Below are positions 3,415 through 44,893 of a stretch of DNA of 55,434 nt, in pieces. The DNA comes from Ionaspis alba (lineage: Eukaryota). The position numbers were made by a program, and so were the translations under genes. The first letter of the stretch is position 1; every line of letters starts with the position of its first letter. The stretch lies in the NCBI GenBank assembly GCA_964255285.1, contig CAXUUL010000031.1:1-55434 (forward strand), given 5' to 3'. Below the pieces are notes generated by a model. The model was not told the origin of the DNA, searched no databases, and was given only the letters and a program-made list of their open reading frames with translations.

Positions 3415-5518
3415 ATGAAGCTTCGACCGGTGCTTAGCGCTTTTCAAAACGCAAGAAATAGACCACAAATTCCGTCTCTGTACGAATCGTTTCCGATTGC
3501 CCTCCATAAGAATGCTAGGCCAAGGCGAAACTTCTCGTCGCGACCATGTCTGCTGGAAAAGCCATACTATGTTACTACACCAATCTTCTATGTCAATGCT
3601 GGTACGAGAAGACGCCAAAAATTGAACGACCTAGACTAAATGGTGTATAGCGCCTCATATAGGTCATCTGTACAGCATTGTCCTCACGGATATCTTGAAG
3701 CGATGGCAGATTCTTCAAGGAAAGAAAGCTATACTGTGCACAGGAACGGACGAGCACGGCATGAAAGTCAGTCGGTCAGAGAAGAAACTCAGAGCTTCAA
3801 GCTGATCGCAGCTTTGATCAGATACAACAAGCAGCGTCAAAAGCAGGACAAGACGTGCGCTCCTTCTGCGATCAGAACTACAGAAGCTTTGAGGTGCGCC
3901 AGTTATATGATCTGCTGCGGAAATTATGCTAAAACGCTGAAGGATCTTGCTCGACAAGCGAATGTTAGCGCAGATCATTTCATCAGGACCTCAGAACCCG
4001 AACATCGATTAGCGGTTCAGCACTTTTGGGTTCGTCGGTGAGCCTGAGGCTTTTTCCAGTGGCTGGGAACTAATGAATCTGCCAGTTGATGCTCAAGGAG
4101 CGAGGACACATCTACACCTCAAAACATGAGGGATGGTATTCTATCAACGATGAGACCTTCTATCCACCATCAGCTGTGCAACTAACACTCGATCCCTCCA
4201 CTGGACGGAAATTCATGGTAAGACAGAAGATGGGCCGCAGGACCGCTCAATGTTGACACCAAATCAGGCATCCGTAGAGACGGGCCAAGAAGTTGAATGG
4301 ACGTCGGAGAAGAATTATCATTTCCGCCTTTCCACATTCAGAGACCGTCTGCTGGAGTTTTATGGAGCAAATCCAACTTTCGTGGTCCCGGCAACTCGAA
4401 TGGCGGAAGTAGTGCAAGCAGTGACAAATGGTCTAGAAGATCTCTCAATATCCCGTCCAGTTGAGAGGCTTACATGGGGTATACCTGTTCCGGATGACGA
4501 GACACAAACCATTTATGTTTGGCTTGATGCTCTGATAAACTACCTTACCAAAGCCAATTACCCCTTTCAGGTACCAGGAGAAGAGAATGCTGCCGGCTGG
4601 CCCGCAGACTGTCATGTCGTCGGAAAAGACATAGTAAGGTAAGTCCGTGGAGTATTCGATATGCTCGATGTATTGTCTCACGGTTTTCAGATTTCACTGT
4701 ATATACTGGCCCGCTTTTCTAATGGCCCTCGACCTCCCTCTTCCCCGGCAGGTCCTCACACATGCACACTGGACTATTGGTAGACTGAAGATGTCTAAGT
4801 CAAGAGGGAACGTCGTAAACCCATTCTTCGCACTCGACCGCTTCGGCGTTGACACAATGCGATATTATCTTGCTCTTGAAGGTGGCATCCGAGATGATTC
4901 TGACTACGACAACTTGTACATCATCGACAGGTACAAGAAGGGGCTCAACGGTGGTCTGGGCAATCTAGTCAGTCGTGTGATGCGTGGCAAGGGCTGGAAT
5001 GTGCAAAGAGCTGTCCAGTCCGCAGCTACCGGCCTTCAGCCAGCTGAAGGACTGTCCGCGGCAGAACATCGCGATCAACTGATGAAACTCCCCGAACTTG
5101 TGACAAGCAAGATGGAAGAGCTAGACTCGGGTGCGGCGTTGAAGGAAATTATGCGCGTCGTTTACAAGGCAAGATGTTCATGTCCAGGTCAACAGTATCA
5201 TGCTAACCTGAACAATAGACGAACCGTTACATGCAAGCAATGCAGCCATGGGATCTGCTTGGAACCGAAGACCAACAACCGTCGCTGGATTCAATCATCT
5301 ACCTCTGCGTCGAATCACTCCGCATCTGTGGCATCCTACTCCAACCATACATGCCTGACAAGATGAAGATGCTGCTGGACATGCTGGGGGTATCACAAGA
5401 CGCTCGAAAATATGAAAACACATTACTCGGCTCTGATCTGAGCTTTGGCAAGCCATTTATAGAGTTGGGAAAAGGGCGGGAAGGCGTCCTGTTTCCTCCA
5501 CTCCGTAGTGATTTCTAG
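3415..5518 (+). CDS. MSM1: Mitochondrial methionyl-tRNA synthetase; 8 exons (3415-3601, 3651-3766, 3822-3893, 3943-4029, 4086-4217, 4268-4638, 4691-5168, 5219-5518)
   Basis: [18 protein letters not shown] (HIGH motif), YVWLDAL, GKDIVRFH and KMSKS. The Arg/Ser-rich N-terminus resembles a targeting peptide. Confidence 0.93.
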
Positions 5519-32179: not shown

Positions 32180-33001
32180 CCCAGCTAATCTTGACAATCT
32201 CGAAAATCAATAGCTGGCTGTCAAATGAGAGCATAATTGCAGCATCCCGCTAGTGCTGCAGTAGTGCATGGCTAAGCAAGTCTCCCGGAGCGGGTGCGAT
32301 TTACTTCCGGCCACATGCCTTTGAGCAAGTCCTTCTATCCTTTCATAATGGGTACGTTGAGGATCTTTGGTGTCTATTCTTCTTCTTTCTTGTGGGATGA
32401 GCAAGGATGAGAGCACTGCAAGCCATTCCATCTGTCAATCTGCCACCTCAGTTCTGTCTTACTGCACCGAGTGTGCTCGTGACTAACACGGACAACCAAT
32501 TTATCCATGAAAATGATGTATCATTTCAACCAAATTCAACCAATGGTATGCAATTCTTCAGCGATTATTTCCAAGTCCCTCTTCAGTGTGGGGTCACGCC
32601 TCCAACGTGCGTTTTCAATGTGCCTTTCTTCTGGCGTCATTTCCTTTCAACCTTGCCCAATTACGTTTTCTTCCTCCGTAGCCCAGCGGCGGAGCTTCTG
32701 CCACGCTCGACGCTGTTGGGCCAAGAGGGCAGAATTTGACTACTCGGATCCTCAAAGTTCCATTTCCATGTCGATGGATGTACCAAGTGTGGATCTATTA
32801 GGGCCTGAAGGAGCCATGCAAAGCCTACCACTGTGGTTGCACGGGGCGGCGGGCAGAATCCAGCCCCATATGCGTTCCAATTTGAGGTGAAAGAGGTTTG
32901 CTTTGTTTTCGACTGCGATCTCCTTTTTGCGAAGTATATAACGTCTCTTGCATCAATCTTAGAAACATTCCTAACTCCTACACATATTTGATATTCCAAA
33001 G

Positions 33002-33369
33002 ATGATGTACCGTTGTATTTTTTCATTGTCAATTTTTCTCCTAATTGCCCTTGTACATTCAGCATACGCAGTGGCAATACCAGCTCCTCCAGCAGGACAG
33101 GCGCCTCCCCAACCNNNNNNNNNNNNNNNNNNNNNNNNNNNNNNNNNNNNNNNNNNNNNNNNNNNNNNNNNNNNNNNNNNNNNNNNNNNNNNNNNNNNNN
33201 NNNNNNNNNNNNNNCAGCATACGCAGTGGCAATACCAGCTCCTCCAGCAGGACAGGCGCCTCCCCAACCAGTTCCTGATGGTCAAGGTGCTGCCCCGCCA
33301 CCTCTGCCTGCTGGAGGTCAACCGCTTACTGGGAGTTGGGTCGTCTCTCTGACGAGGATGGCCACGTGA
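33002..33369 (+). CDS. Putative small secreted Pro/Gly/Gln-rich protein spanning the assembly gap; downstream part may be decayed
   Basis: Signal-peptide-like MMYRCIFSLSIFLLIALVHSAYA followed by VAIPAPPAGQAPPQ. The frame is continuous if the duplicated gap flanks are collapsed. Confidence 0.45.
33115..33214. other. Assembly gap (100 N) flanked by an exact 55-bp duplication (33060-33114 = 33215-33269)
   Basis: The identical string cagcatacgc...ccccaacc lies on both sides of the N run. Confidence 0.95.
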
Positions 33370-34235
33370 GCGTTCTCGATATGAGTCTGGAGCCTTGGCA
33401 TTCTTAAAATTGTACTGACACTTATGGCTGCAGCCCTCCGACCTGGCCTGTTCTCAGTGGCTCGATAGGACTGGCAAAGCCAACTATAACGCCGTGATAG
33501 CACGTGGAGAGCAGAGATCCAGGCAGAGAACAGAGGTCTTCTCTGCTTGGTTGTCCATCACCAGAGATGACGAGCCTTAGTCAGAACATAATAGATCTGC
33601 ATGCACCATGTCCATAAGCCATACCATAACCGACTACCAATCGACTAAGAGGGTGGAGGTCTTCACGGCTGGCAAAGACAAGGCAAATAAGAAGCTCGCT
33701 AGGCTTGGTAGTAGGACTCGAGAAGGAATTGCGCTGTCTGGAGCAAATCTGCATATGGCGTCGACATCAATTTCGATCTCGTAGACTTTGCCACAAATGA
33801 AGAAACTTTTACCCGACCAGAGTTCCTATGTCCTCACATCTATAGTCCGCTAGGGAAGAGGCTCGTCCACAAGCAGGTCTGAAAGACGGAGAAGTCACTC
33901 TCCTAGAACGACTTCAGGCCCCTGATCTCGGAGATGATCGGTTCCTGATAGCCTTGGAAAGAAGCCAAGGGTTCAATCTAGCGCTCAGCTTGTGATCTAC
34001 CAACAATAGAGCAAAGTGCTGGAGACGTTTGTGTGTCTGTCCTAGTAGCGCGTGTTACCATCCTCAATCATCGTGCCAGCCCCTAAGAAATGAACATGTC
34101 TCGTCATTTTACAACATTGGACCGATGCTATCTACCGCGTAATGCCCATAAGTCGAGTGCCAGAGTAGAGTACATACCCACGAACACCCATATATACAGA
34201 CCACCTATCTTTCTGAGCCCAGTCCGGCGCTTCAA

Positions 34236-42498: not shown

Positions 42499-43049
42499 CT
42501 ACAGAAACTCTGGAAATACCATGTCGGCCAATTGTTCTGTCTGGAGTTGACGTTCTGTTCCGTTTGTGTCAGATATTGGCCCCCCTTAGCATTCATCTAC
42601 TTACCAGCTCGAATGCTGTCGGTACTCCTGAAAGCAACAATTGCAGCTTGCGGGATGTTGTGGAGACACAGGAATTCTGTTACTTGCCTATCCAAGCCAT
42701 ACAACGGCATTGAGGAGGGATGGAAGACCCAGACCTCTTGGAACTTGGCTCCATCGATTTCTATGACCTGGCAGGGTTGGTTGATCCGTTGTTCCCTTTT
42801 GAGTGCCCAGTTCTCTGCATGTCTTTTGTCATCAAAGATGGAAATGAAAGGGCTGGGAATGCCTGAGTCCCAGTTGAGATGATCAAAGATTGATTGACAG
42901 AAATCGTTTATCGACGCACGGAACAAGACGGTGCGACTATCCGCAGCCTGAAAGCCTATCGAAGGACAGTATTGAGTCCAAGTCCCTTCGTATTGTACTC
43001 GATAGAATTTTCGCATGAGCAATGAAGGATGTACTCGGTGCTGATCCAT
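42499..43049 (-). CDS. Small DUF7587-like protein with an R-S-E ADP-ribosyltransferase-like signature; exons 43049-42605 and 42554-42499 (166 aa)
   Basis: KFYRVQ...GFQA...HLNWD..SPFISIF...HAENWA...VIEID...TEFLCLHNIP. A GTAAGT...CTGAC...CAG intron restores an in-frame end. Confidence 0.7.
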
Positions 43050-43793
43050 GTTTTGTAGAGATTGTGTTTAGGAGGAGACCACATGTATGAGGTGCCAGCA
43101 GAGAAGGAGAAGAAGAAACTGTTGGCAGAAATCTAAGACATATAATCTGGAGTACGATATGCATGCAAACGAGTCTCTTGGCTATGGTAAACGTGAACCC
43201 GCCATGGCCCTTGATGAGCGTTTGTAGCCTCCGACGCTCAACAAACCGATATTATATGCTTTGAGAAGACCGAAAACAAAACGCAATATACGATAGGGAA
43301 TAATTTTGATCACGGAGCTGTATTTCGAAACAGATACCTTTATTGCACAGATGGGTTGCAGGAGCATCATCTATGAGAAACTTCGCATCTGAGCAACTCC
43401 AAATAGCTGCAGTATCTAGCAAGTAACTAGTTCCGAGAGACCACCCGTGGGTAATACTTGCCTCCAACTAGTAATGGGACCATGCTATATGTCAGGGCGT
43501 AGAGCGGTGCAATTATTTGACATAGCTTTTCCCAAGAACATAGGGAGGTCTTCACAGATAGCAACAATCCAGATGCAAGTGAAGGCCATAGGAGTAGTGG
43601 CATATGGTAGTCTGCGTAGTGGAGGTCACCTCGAGAGGCGATGAGGAAGTTCTATAACTCCTTTCGATGTTTTGAGTGAGGTAGTGCGGAGCCTTCCCGA
43701 TTCGGATTGACCGCACATGGTCCTCGTGGGACATTCGTCCCTTCCTAAAATGGATTATTTACTTTGGCAGGGCTGACGTCCTTCATTAATCAC

Positions 43794-43940
43794 CCCTTGG
43801 TGGTCTAGTTGGGTCAGTATTACAAACCATCTTCAATACTTGTTCTGAGATTCACCAACTAATACTGAACAGTTATGGCACCCGGCTGTAATGGTGACCA
43901 GCTCACCGGGTTGTCGGCGGTTCGATTCCGCCCCAAGGGA
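43794..43940 (+). tRNA. tRNA-Tyr: tRNA-Tyr(GTA) with two introns: a 60-nt GT-AG intron in the D-loop (43813-43872) and a 13-nt canonical intron after position 37 (43892-43904)
   Basis: The spliced sequence CCCTTGG TG GTCT AGTTGGTTA TGGC A CCCGG CT GTA AA CCGGG TTGTC GGCGG TTCGATT CCGCC CCAAGGG A folds as a full cloverleaf. Acceptor, anticodon and T stems are perfect, C1:G72 and A73 are present, and the A and B boxes are intact. Confidence 0.88.
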
Positions 43941-43980
43941 TGAATACCTTGTCTGAGGCCCACCTCAGAATATGGAATCG

Positions 43981-43998
43981 TTTTTTATCAATTTTTTT
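43981..43998 (+). terminator. Probable Pol III terminator (T6 and T7 runs) of the tRNA gene
   Basis: First long T runs downstream of the tRNA, about 40 nt past the discriminator base. Confidence 0.55.
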
Positions 43999-44304: not shown

Positions 44305-44893
44305 AAATTTCAACAAGTCCACTTTCAAGGGCCCCAACCTGGCTGAGGCCATTCTATCTTTCAAACGCAACTCACAGCCATTACTTAAAGGGATCAGATT
44401 ACCCAACGAGATTAGAGAGTAAAGAACACTTCGGTCAGTATTTTGTTTCGTCGCTCAAAGAATTGTTAGTTATTTGATAGCTTGTGCTGGTAAAAAATGC
44501 TCTCTGGTCTTCCCTGATATGAAAGGTATGGTTCATCACCTTGCGAGCCACGCTGAGAGCGATGGAGAGGTCCATACCTGTTTAGTCGAAGGCTGCTCGC
44601 AAACTTTGAAGATCGATTCAGATAATCGTTGGCATTCGGTACGCATGCATCTGTATCGACACTACAATGTCACGGCAGTGAATTGTGATATCTGCGCGTG
44701 GTCTGGGTTCTCTAAGGCTGAACTACAACGGCATATGGAAGCGACACACCAGCAAGGGAACTACTCATGTGAGTTCTGCGGGCGGGACTTGCACACACTC
44801 CGTCAACTCCGATAACGTTATCTTACACATCAGCAAATAGAGGAGACAGAGGCGTTTGAGGAGTCTTTGCGAGAATTCGAGAGGAGGGCTTGA
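44305..44893 (+). pseudogene. Decayed C2H2 zinc-finger gene (about 4 fingers)
   Basis: CAGKKC..HLASH, CLVEGC..HLYRH, CDIC..HMEATH. The fourth finger, CEFC...LR*RYLTH, is broken by TAA at 44813-44815 and lacks the first His. GTCAGT...TAG intron at 44434-44480. Confidence 0.55.

Follow-up and report, generated by a model that had tools for sequence, protein, structure and literature searches.

A tRNA-Tyr gene of a lichen-forming fungus with a candidate spliceosomal intron in its D-loop

A tRNA-Tyr gene with two inserts

The 55,434-nt stretch of DNA analysed here (contig CAXUUL010000031.1 of the Ionaspis alba assembly GCA_964255285.1; hereafter the window) carries at 43794-43940 a tRNA-Tyr gene that is interrupted twice: by a 13-nt insert in the anticodon loop and by a 60-nt insert in the D-loop, the latter being the subject of this report (Table 1). 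An earlier note, made from the letters of the window, had proposed that the shorter insert is a normal tRNA intron and the longer one a spliceosomal-type intron. When 43813-43872 are taken out, ARAGORN calls a 74-nt tRNA-Tyr(gta) with a 13-nt anticodon-loop intron, and removal of both inserts in a script yields the identical tRNA-Tyr call. The acceptor stem of the restored cloverleaf has 7/7 Watson-Crick pairs, with C1:G72 and A73, and its anticodon and T stems are each fully paired (5/5); the D stem comprises two Watson-Crick pairs, one G.U pair (U11.G24) and one U.U mismatch (13:22), and the restored D-loop, AGUUGGUUA, is of a normal 9 nt. By its anticodon, C1:G72, A73 and the intron at 37/38, 43794-43940 is a eukaryotic cytosolic tRNA-Tyr(GUA) gene, with not one disabling change in its 74 exon positions, promoter boxes or terminator. 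The tRNA identity given in the earlier note, its placing of the longer insert directly after G19 (the junction lies between G19 and U20, with boundaries at 43813 and 43872) and its description of the exons as undecayed are all borne out by this cloverleaf.

By position, short length and anticodon-region pairing, the 13-nt insert is an ordinary member of the tRNA-Tyr introns at 37/38, which are described as the most conserved tRNA introns of eukaryotes (PMC12168002); ARAGORN sets its start one base rightward, in an equivalent register. Such an intron leaves the 60-nt insert in the D-loop unexplained. Exact removal of the latter as a GT..AG unit gives a textbook tRNA-Tyr with no base gained or lost. 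An alternative register, 43812-43871, would give the same product, the GT..AG termini being found only in register 43813-43872. A unit of this precision in a tRNA is the signature of intron insertion rather than that of a transposon or of a scar left by repair.

With the longer insert in place, the gene escapes detection, as had been anticipated for standard tRNA scanners: neither ARAGORN at default settings nor Rfam at its gathering thresholds calls a tRNA in the whole window, and ARAGORN recovers the gene once the insert is removed. With introns allowed, ARAGORN offers for the full sequence only a forced 'Cys(aca), 62-nt intron' across the same span, and the Rfam tRNA model, at a loose threshold, reaches 16.7 bits on the 3' part of the locus against a gathering score of 29. 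Rfam matches to PhotoRC-I (16.9 bits) and sR7 (11 bits) fall far under their thresholds and were set aside as chance.

Table 1. Features of the interrupted tRNA-Tyr locus, in positions of the window
Feature	Position	Strand	Remarks
tRNA-Tyr exon 1 (19 nt)	43794..43812	+	acceptor 5' strand, U8 G9, D-stem 5' strand, D-loop to G18 G19; contains the A box
A box TGGTCTAGTTGG	43801..43812	+	intact
D-loop insert, 60 nt, spliceosomal U2 GT-AG type	43813..43872	+	between G19 and U20; sense orientation of the tRNA
Donor-like hexamer GTCAGT	43813..43818	+	also first hexamer of MSM1 intron 3767-3821
9-bp stem, 5' arm TCAGTATTA	43814..43822	+	intron positions 2-10; overlaps the donor
Branch-site-like ACTAAT	43858..43863	+	branch A 10 nt from the insert's 3' end; also in MSM1 intron 4030-4085 and candidate intron 31461-31417 (-)
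9-bp stem, 3' arm TAATACTGA	43860..43868	+	intron positions 48-56; overlaps the branch motif
Acceptor-like CAG	43870..43872	+	
tRNA-Tyr exon 2 (19 nt)	43873..43891	+	remaining D-loop (UUA), D-stem 3' strand, A26, anticodon stem 5' strand, loop through GUA A37
Canonical tRNA intron, 13 nt, at 37/38	43892..43904	+	ARAGORN; CAGC can pair with GCUG of positions 31-34 (read from the sequence)
tRNA-Tyr exon 3 (36 nt)	43905..43940	+	A38, anticodon stem 3' strand, variable loop, T arm, acceptor 3' strand, A73
B box GGTTCGATTCC	43919..43929	+	intact
3' trailer, 40 nt, then T6 terminator-like run	43941..43986	+	T6 at 43981-43986; second run T7 at 43992-43998

Splice signals, transcription layout and folds of the D-loop insert

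The D-loop insert carries the full set of splice signals that had been read in it, viz., GTCAGT, ACTAAT and CAG, in a length near that of host introns. The combination is rare: when all 60-mers of the window are considered on both strands, the set of GTNNGT, CTRAY (6-30 nt from the end) and YAG occurs in 3/110,748, one of which is this insert, and random sequence of the window's composition gives 25/2,000,000. As a comparison from the host itself, we modelled MSM1, the gene for the mitochondrial methionyl-tRNA synthetase (3415-5366), with six introns at 3602-3650, 3767-3821, 3894-3942, 4030-4085, 4218-4267 and 4639-4690. This model keeps the reading frame open through 546 codons and upholds the donor GTCAGT at 3767 to which attention had been drawn; of the six introns, only 4030-4085 is backed directly by Pfam, whose profile runs on across it (105|106), and the backing for the others is loose. 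The six introns measure 49-56 nt; three of them have GTNNGT and two a strict CTRAY, with one GTCAGT and one ACTAAT in the set. A crude, heuristic screen for continuity of open reading frames (ORFs) returned 25 candidate introns of 41-140 nt, the most plausible being of 45-90 nt. Measured against MSM1 and the screen, the 60-nt insert has the signals and length of this genome's introns, and its signals surpass those of several MSM1 introns. MSM1 has at least six introns, with degenerate donors that include GTACGA, GTGCGC and GTAAGA; past about residue 480 its model looks non-homologous, so that at least one more intron was probably missed near 4950-5110.

The layout of the gene is compatible with transcription by RNA polymerase III (Pol III), with intact boxes, no internal T-run and a terminator downstream. 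The A box is whole within exon 1 and the insert holds no T4 run, both as the earlier note had stated; indeed, no run of four or more Ts lies between 43780 and 43980, and the first such run is found 40 nt beyond the gene. Taken by itself, a T4-free insert carries little weight, since 83% of the window 60-mers and 4/6 MSM1 introns also lack one (the other 2/6 carry T4 or longer). The A and B boxes are spaced by 106 nt. A 6-bp hairpin (CTGAGG/CCTCAG, 43953-43968) is present in the trailer upstream of the T6.

The termini of the insert can pair with each other, TCAGTATTA being the perfect reverse complement of TAATACTGA; the earlier note does not mention this stem, which takes up the donor and the branch region and brings the local fold near to a bulge-helix-bulge. 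Perfect terminal stems of at least 9 bp are found in 26/110,748 window 60-mers, and the terminal stems of the MSM1 introns reach only 3-5 bp, none of the six having a 9-bp stem of this kind. In the minimum free energy (MFE) fold of the 147-nt precursor (z = -1.84), the acceptor, T and anticodon-plus-intron arms all form, and the insert projects laterally from the D region. Along this arm, a 6-bp helix (43806-11 with 43870-75) gives way to a GG bulge, in which the 5' junction lies, and the bulge to the 9-bp stem; the 3' junction is inside a helix and not in a bulge. The local fold around the insert is no more stable than that of shuffled sequence (z = +0.32). An enumeration of bulges and helices over both junction registers gave 0/384 arrangements with a fully paired central helix of 4 or 5 bp. 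The best arrangement resembling a bulge-helix-bulge (BHB) has a 3-bp central helix (43808-10 with 43868-70), bulges GG|GU and AG|U, an 8-bp outer helix and a 2-bp inner helix, and both of its junctions follow the second bulge base. With 0/384 such helices and the 3' junction in a helix, a canonical BHB at the insert is ruled out, the best arrangement being a near-miss.

Processing, origin and competing explanations

Judged by its flanking proteins, the host belongs to the lichen-forming Lecanoromycetes, near Xylographa and Lambiella: among named sequences, the neighbouring nitronate monooxygenase (NMO) is closest, at 81-82% identity, to those of Xylographa vitiligo, X. bjoerkii, X. pallens, Lambiella insularis and Lignoscripta atroalba, and next to those of other lichen-forming Lecanoromycetes. 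Such a host makes an ectopic spliceosomal intron more plausible. Ectopic spliceosomal introns are known in the rDNA of lichen fungi, and a 57-bp GT-AG intron from the rDNA of Cladonia grayi was removed by yeast spliceosomes from rRNA made by RNA polymerase I (Pol I) (PMC8527467). These cases share with the tRNA-Tyr gene the kind of host and a short GT-AG intron in a gene outside the realm of RNA polymerase II (Pol II). They differ in that the rRNA precursors are long, nucleolar Pol I products, whereas the precursor of the tRNA would be a Pol III RNA of about 200 nt; the accessible part of that account mentions no tRNA case (PMC8527467).

A second precedent is the sole U6 gene of Schizosaccharomyces pombe, with an intron that the spliceosome excises and that is thought to have entered by reverse splicing, U6 being the one spliceosomal RNA made by Pol III (PMC5855946). 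Like the D-loop insert, the fungal U6 introns place mRNA-type signals in a small, structured Pol III RNA with an internal promoter, and reverse splicing followed by reverse transcription is likewise their proposed origin (PMC5855946). However, U6 sits within the spliceosome's active site, which explains why it was hit, and a tRNA does not; the tRNA-Tyr gene also bears an endonuclease-type intron and has a far shorter 5' exon (19 nt). Moreover, splicing has been demonstrated for S. pombe U6, whereas the tRNA-Tyr insert is known here from sequence alone. Further spliceosomal introns have been recorded in the genes for U1, U2 and U5 small nuclear RNA and for rRNA, a list that does not extend to tRNA (PMC5855946). 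Reviews present spliceosomal and tRNA introns as separate systems (bioRxiv 10.1101/2025.06.17.660180; PMC10275265). In agreement with the earlier note, which knew of no described case in a tRNA, our literature search, with most subscription journals outside its scope, turned up no paper in which a tRNA gene is described as having a spliceosomal intron.

The interpretation that we favour, and to which we give somewhat less than an even chance, is that a working nuclear tRNA-Tyr(GUA) gene may have gained a genuine 60-nt U2-type spliceosomal intron, on which the spliceosome would act first and the tRNA splicing endonuclease (TSEN) and ligase would follow. Pol III would start a few bases upstream of 43794 by means of the intact A and B boxes, pass through both inserts, which are free of T4 runs, and stop at the T6 at 43981. 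The spliceosome would then recognise GUCAGU, ACUAAU and CAG and release the 60 nt as a lariat, thereby restoring AGUUGGUUA. Only after this removal would G18 and G19 dock on the T-loop and the L-shape form, whereupon the ruler-type fungal tRNA endonuclease and the ligase would take out the 13-nt intron, with end trimming and addition of CCA. We infer this order of steps because a ruler-type endonuclease needs a folded tRNA body and 60 nt following G19 would impair the contact of G18/G19 with the T-loop; TSEN of the alpha-beta-gamma-delta type, that of animals and fungi, is described as recognising the tRNA body and as removing introns only at 37/38 (PMC10485636). The 9-bp stem, for its part, may hold the exon ends side by side, with the remaining cloverleaf pre-folding around it.

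With respect to origin, the base-exact GT..AG unit, the sense orientation and the lack of any target duplication or deletion speak for the RNA-level insertion of a genuine spliceosomal intron. This could have come about through reverse splicing, reverse transcription and recombination into the tRNA gene, i.e., by the route proposed for the fungal U6 introns. We are equally tentative, and again stop a little short of even expectation, about the broader proposition that this may be a tRNA in need of both the spliceosome and the tRNA endonuclease, the first case of a spliceosomal intron in a tRNA gene, derived by reverse splicing in lichen fungi and provided with a hairpin that serves as a folding clamp.

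Several observations weigh against a working, spliced gene. The 5' exon would have only 19 nt and a short leader, would be uncapped and would be partly locked in the acceptor stem. The 9-bp stem, rare in the window and absent from all six MSM1 introns, is not predicted by spliceosomal removal and, since it buries the donor and the branch region, could hinder the binding of U1 and U2. The U11.G24 pair of the D stem is slightly weak and, as tRNA genes go, both the 106-nt spacing of the boxes and the 40-nt trailer are long. Finally, a metagenome scan that returned at least 119 loci had no second split tRNA of the AGTTGG|GTNNGT type among the matches listed. The main rival of the working-gene interpretation is one that we regard as unlikely, though a serious contender: the insert may be a real spliceosomal intron by origin, lodged in one non-productive tRNA-Tyr copy, a young pseudogene, with other Tyr genes doing the decoding. 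The intron signals, although beyond chance, bear on origin only and not on present function; intact exons are expected after any recent event; the missing T4 is weak evidence; the wide spacing of the boxes, the length of the trailer and U11.G24 might be signs of a weak gene; and the hairpin over donor and branch might block splicing. What such a pseudogene has to contend with is the lack of a disabling change in the 74 exon positions, the boxes and the terminator, and the fact that a reverse-spliced intron is chemically able to leave the same context. Spare Tyr copies may also be few, in that lichen fungi can have small tRNA sets (72 predicted tRNA genes in Endocarpon pusillum, a lichen fungus of another class; PMC3897900, Table 1). 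A contig from a public run (X1, described below) crosses the exons without a branch, a weak hint in the same direction.

The remaining alternatives do away with a spliceosomal intron in a Pol III transcript altogether. That the insert is an ectopic tRNA intron, cut on a relaxed BHB by TSEN or by another structure-specific nuclease and rejoined by tRNA ligase, as happens in archaea, Cyanidioschyzon merolae and nucleomorphs, with the 9-bp stem as the outer helix, strikes us as improbable. It would make sense of the BHB-like arrangement with its 3-bp central helix and with both junctions after the second bulge base, and of a terminal stem that is itself improbable (26/110,748). There is also a precedent in Cyanidioschyzon merolae, with 14 D-loop introns and tRNA introns of 11-69 bp, the ectopic ones in the D-loop being of the BHB type (PMC3728597); there, too, two or more introns can occur in a nuclear tRNA gene, one of which lies in the D-loop and is of comparable length, and such genes are missed by standard scanners. 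However, the C. merolae introns and the non-canonical tRNA introns of archaea adopt BHB folds cut by the tRNA endonuclease, whereas the present insert has full spliceosomal signals and no canonical BHB (0/384 arrangements with a paired 4- or 5-bp central helix), places its 3' junction inside a helix of the MFE fold and folds locally no better than shuffled sequence. In contrast to that of C. merolae, the endonuclease type of fungi is described as limited to 37/38 (PMC10485636), and cleavage of this sort would leave GTCAGT, ACTAAT and CAG as a coincidence of about 3 in 100,000. We consider it very improbable that the tRNA is instead carved from a longer Pol II transcript of the intergenic region, with co-transcriptional removal of the insert by the spliceosome and subsequent release of the tRNA by RNase P and RNase Z. 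Recruitment of the spliceosome is indeed normally coupled to Pol II (PMC8527467), the trailer is unusually long, and the gene lies in a 1.3-kb gap between DUF7587 (-) and C2H2 (+) ORFs, i.e., in a promoter region; yet the complete A and B boxes and the T6/T7 terminator pair favour an ordinary Pol III unit, and a C2H2 mRNA that started upstream of the tRNA would have to carry 650 nt or more of leader, in which ATGs are numerous. The least probable account, to our mind, is a palindromic or foldback insertion that never was an intron, such as a remnant of a miniature inverted-repeat transposable element (MITE) or a product of templated repair, which either killed the gene or is retained as an extra D-loop arm in the mature tRNA. 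The perfect 9-bp terminal inverted repeat would suit it, as would an insertion point in the length-variable region after G19, but the insert lacks a target-site duplication and a second copy in the 55-kb window, and its boundaries are GT and AG to the base, within a signal set expected about 3 times in 100,000. We know of no tRNA that retains a 60-nt D-loop arm, which speaks against the retained-arm form. The same lack of a target-site duplication, and of a second copy within the 55-kb window, argues against a DNA transposon, MITE or introner as such at the locus, the inverted repeat notwithstanding.

Weighed against these alternatives, the earlier note stands in all its claims at the sequence level, i.e., identity, position, signals, A box, T4 runs and scanners. 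The endonuclease alternative to its spliceosomal proposal is disfavoured and the host lineage makes an ectopic intron more plausible; the double processing itself we retain as tentative.

If the insert is indeed spliced, two splicing pathways would be joined on one small RNA, the first RNA known to need both nuclear systems. tRNA would then join U6, U1, U2, U5 and rRNA among the non-mRNA substrates of the spliceosome, as a new substrate class for the known phenomenon of ectopic spliceosomal introns in non-mRNA genes. The gene would further offer a natural case of intron gain by reverse splicing into an abundant RNA that is not spliceosomal, and would extend the ectopic spliceosomal introns of lichen fungi by a second class; for those in the rDNA of these fungi, a role in slowing growth and in tolerance of desiccation has been proposed. 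It would also mean that eukaryotic tRNA catalogues can be incomplete, since scanners allow introns at 37/38 only and both ARAGORN at its defaults and Rfam missed this gene. Were it, in addition, the sole tRNA-Tyr gene, the fungus would rely on the spliceosome for the whole of its tyrosine decoding.

Neighbourhood, wider searches and sequencing reads

By Pfam, the window is an ordinary ascomycete gene neighbourhood that includes MetRS, PreP, taxilin, NMO and a YVC1-like channel, and in view of these fungal nuclear flanking genes an organellar or algal origin of the DNA was set aside. The tRNA gene lies in a divergent intergenic gap of about 1.3 kb, bounded by the DUF7587 ORF at 42597-43067 (-) and the C2H2 zinc-finger ORF at 44423-44815 (+). 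An intron of an antisense transcript was also set aside, GT-AG being readable on the tRNA strand only. Elsewhere in the window, a scaffold gap of 100 N at 33115-33214 is found between the ORFs 32661-33453 (-) and 34087 onward.

In searches for further examples, the exact 24-nt T-arm/acceptor word had no locus in the metagenome collection, and the 5' exon word had one match in the genome-contig collection, within a bacterial protein-coding gene, and none in viral contigs. The metagenome scan mentioned above looked for AGTTGG+GTNNGT with a T-loop 78-108 nt further on. Among the matches listed, the word lies merely upstream of a normal tRNA at 72 loci, no tRNA covers the T-loop at 45, and forced calls span the word at two. 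From 731 GT..AG removals in these matches came 43 ARAGORN calls across the junction, all of which we interpret as artefacts of a complete downstream tRNA or of partial duplication, and none as a eukaryotic split tRNA. Two metagenome contigs (L010 and L083) carry bacterial tRNA genes with a partial copy of their own 5' region (acceptor and D arm) upstream of them, and matched the D-loop pattern by chance.

Three public runs of one study were searched for a paralogue or an intron-less form of the locus, and none was found; only X1 yielded contigs, which are DNA-like and belong to the locus itself, and X2 and X3, from two other, related organisms, yielded none. One X1 contig spans 43704-44050 without gaps and with two differences from the window, both in the trailer (43977 A>G and 43981 T>A, the latter turning the T6 into a T5), although X1 may be the assembly's own data. 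At single-copy depth and with no branching it runs through the entire gene, and no second locus with identical 31-mers of the tRNA exons is evident in X1. This is a weak hint that the sample lacks another locus whose exons are identical. Immediately upstream of the tRNA gene, over 43650-43733, X1 gives two alternative contigs with depths of 81 and 41, one of which differs from the window at 4/84 positions; the sample thus holds two genotypes or alleles there.

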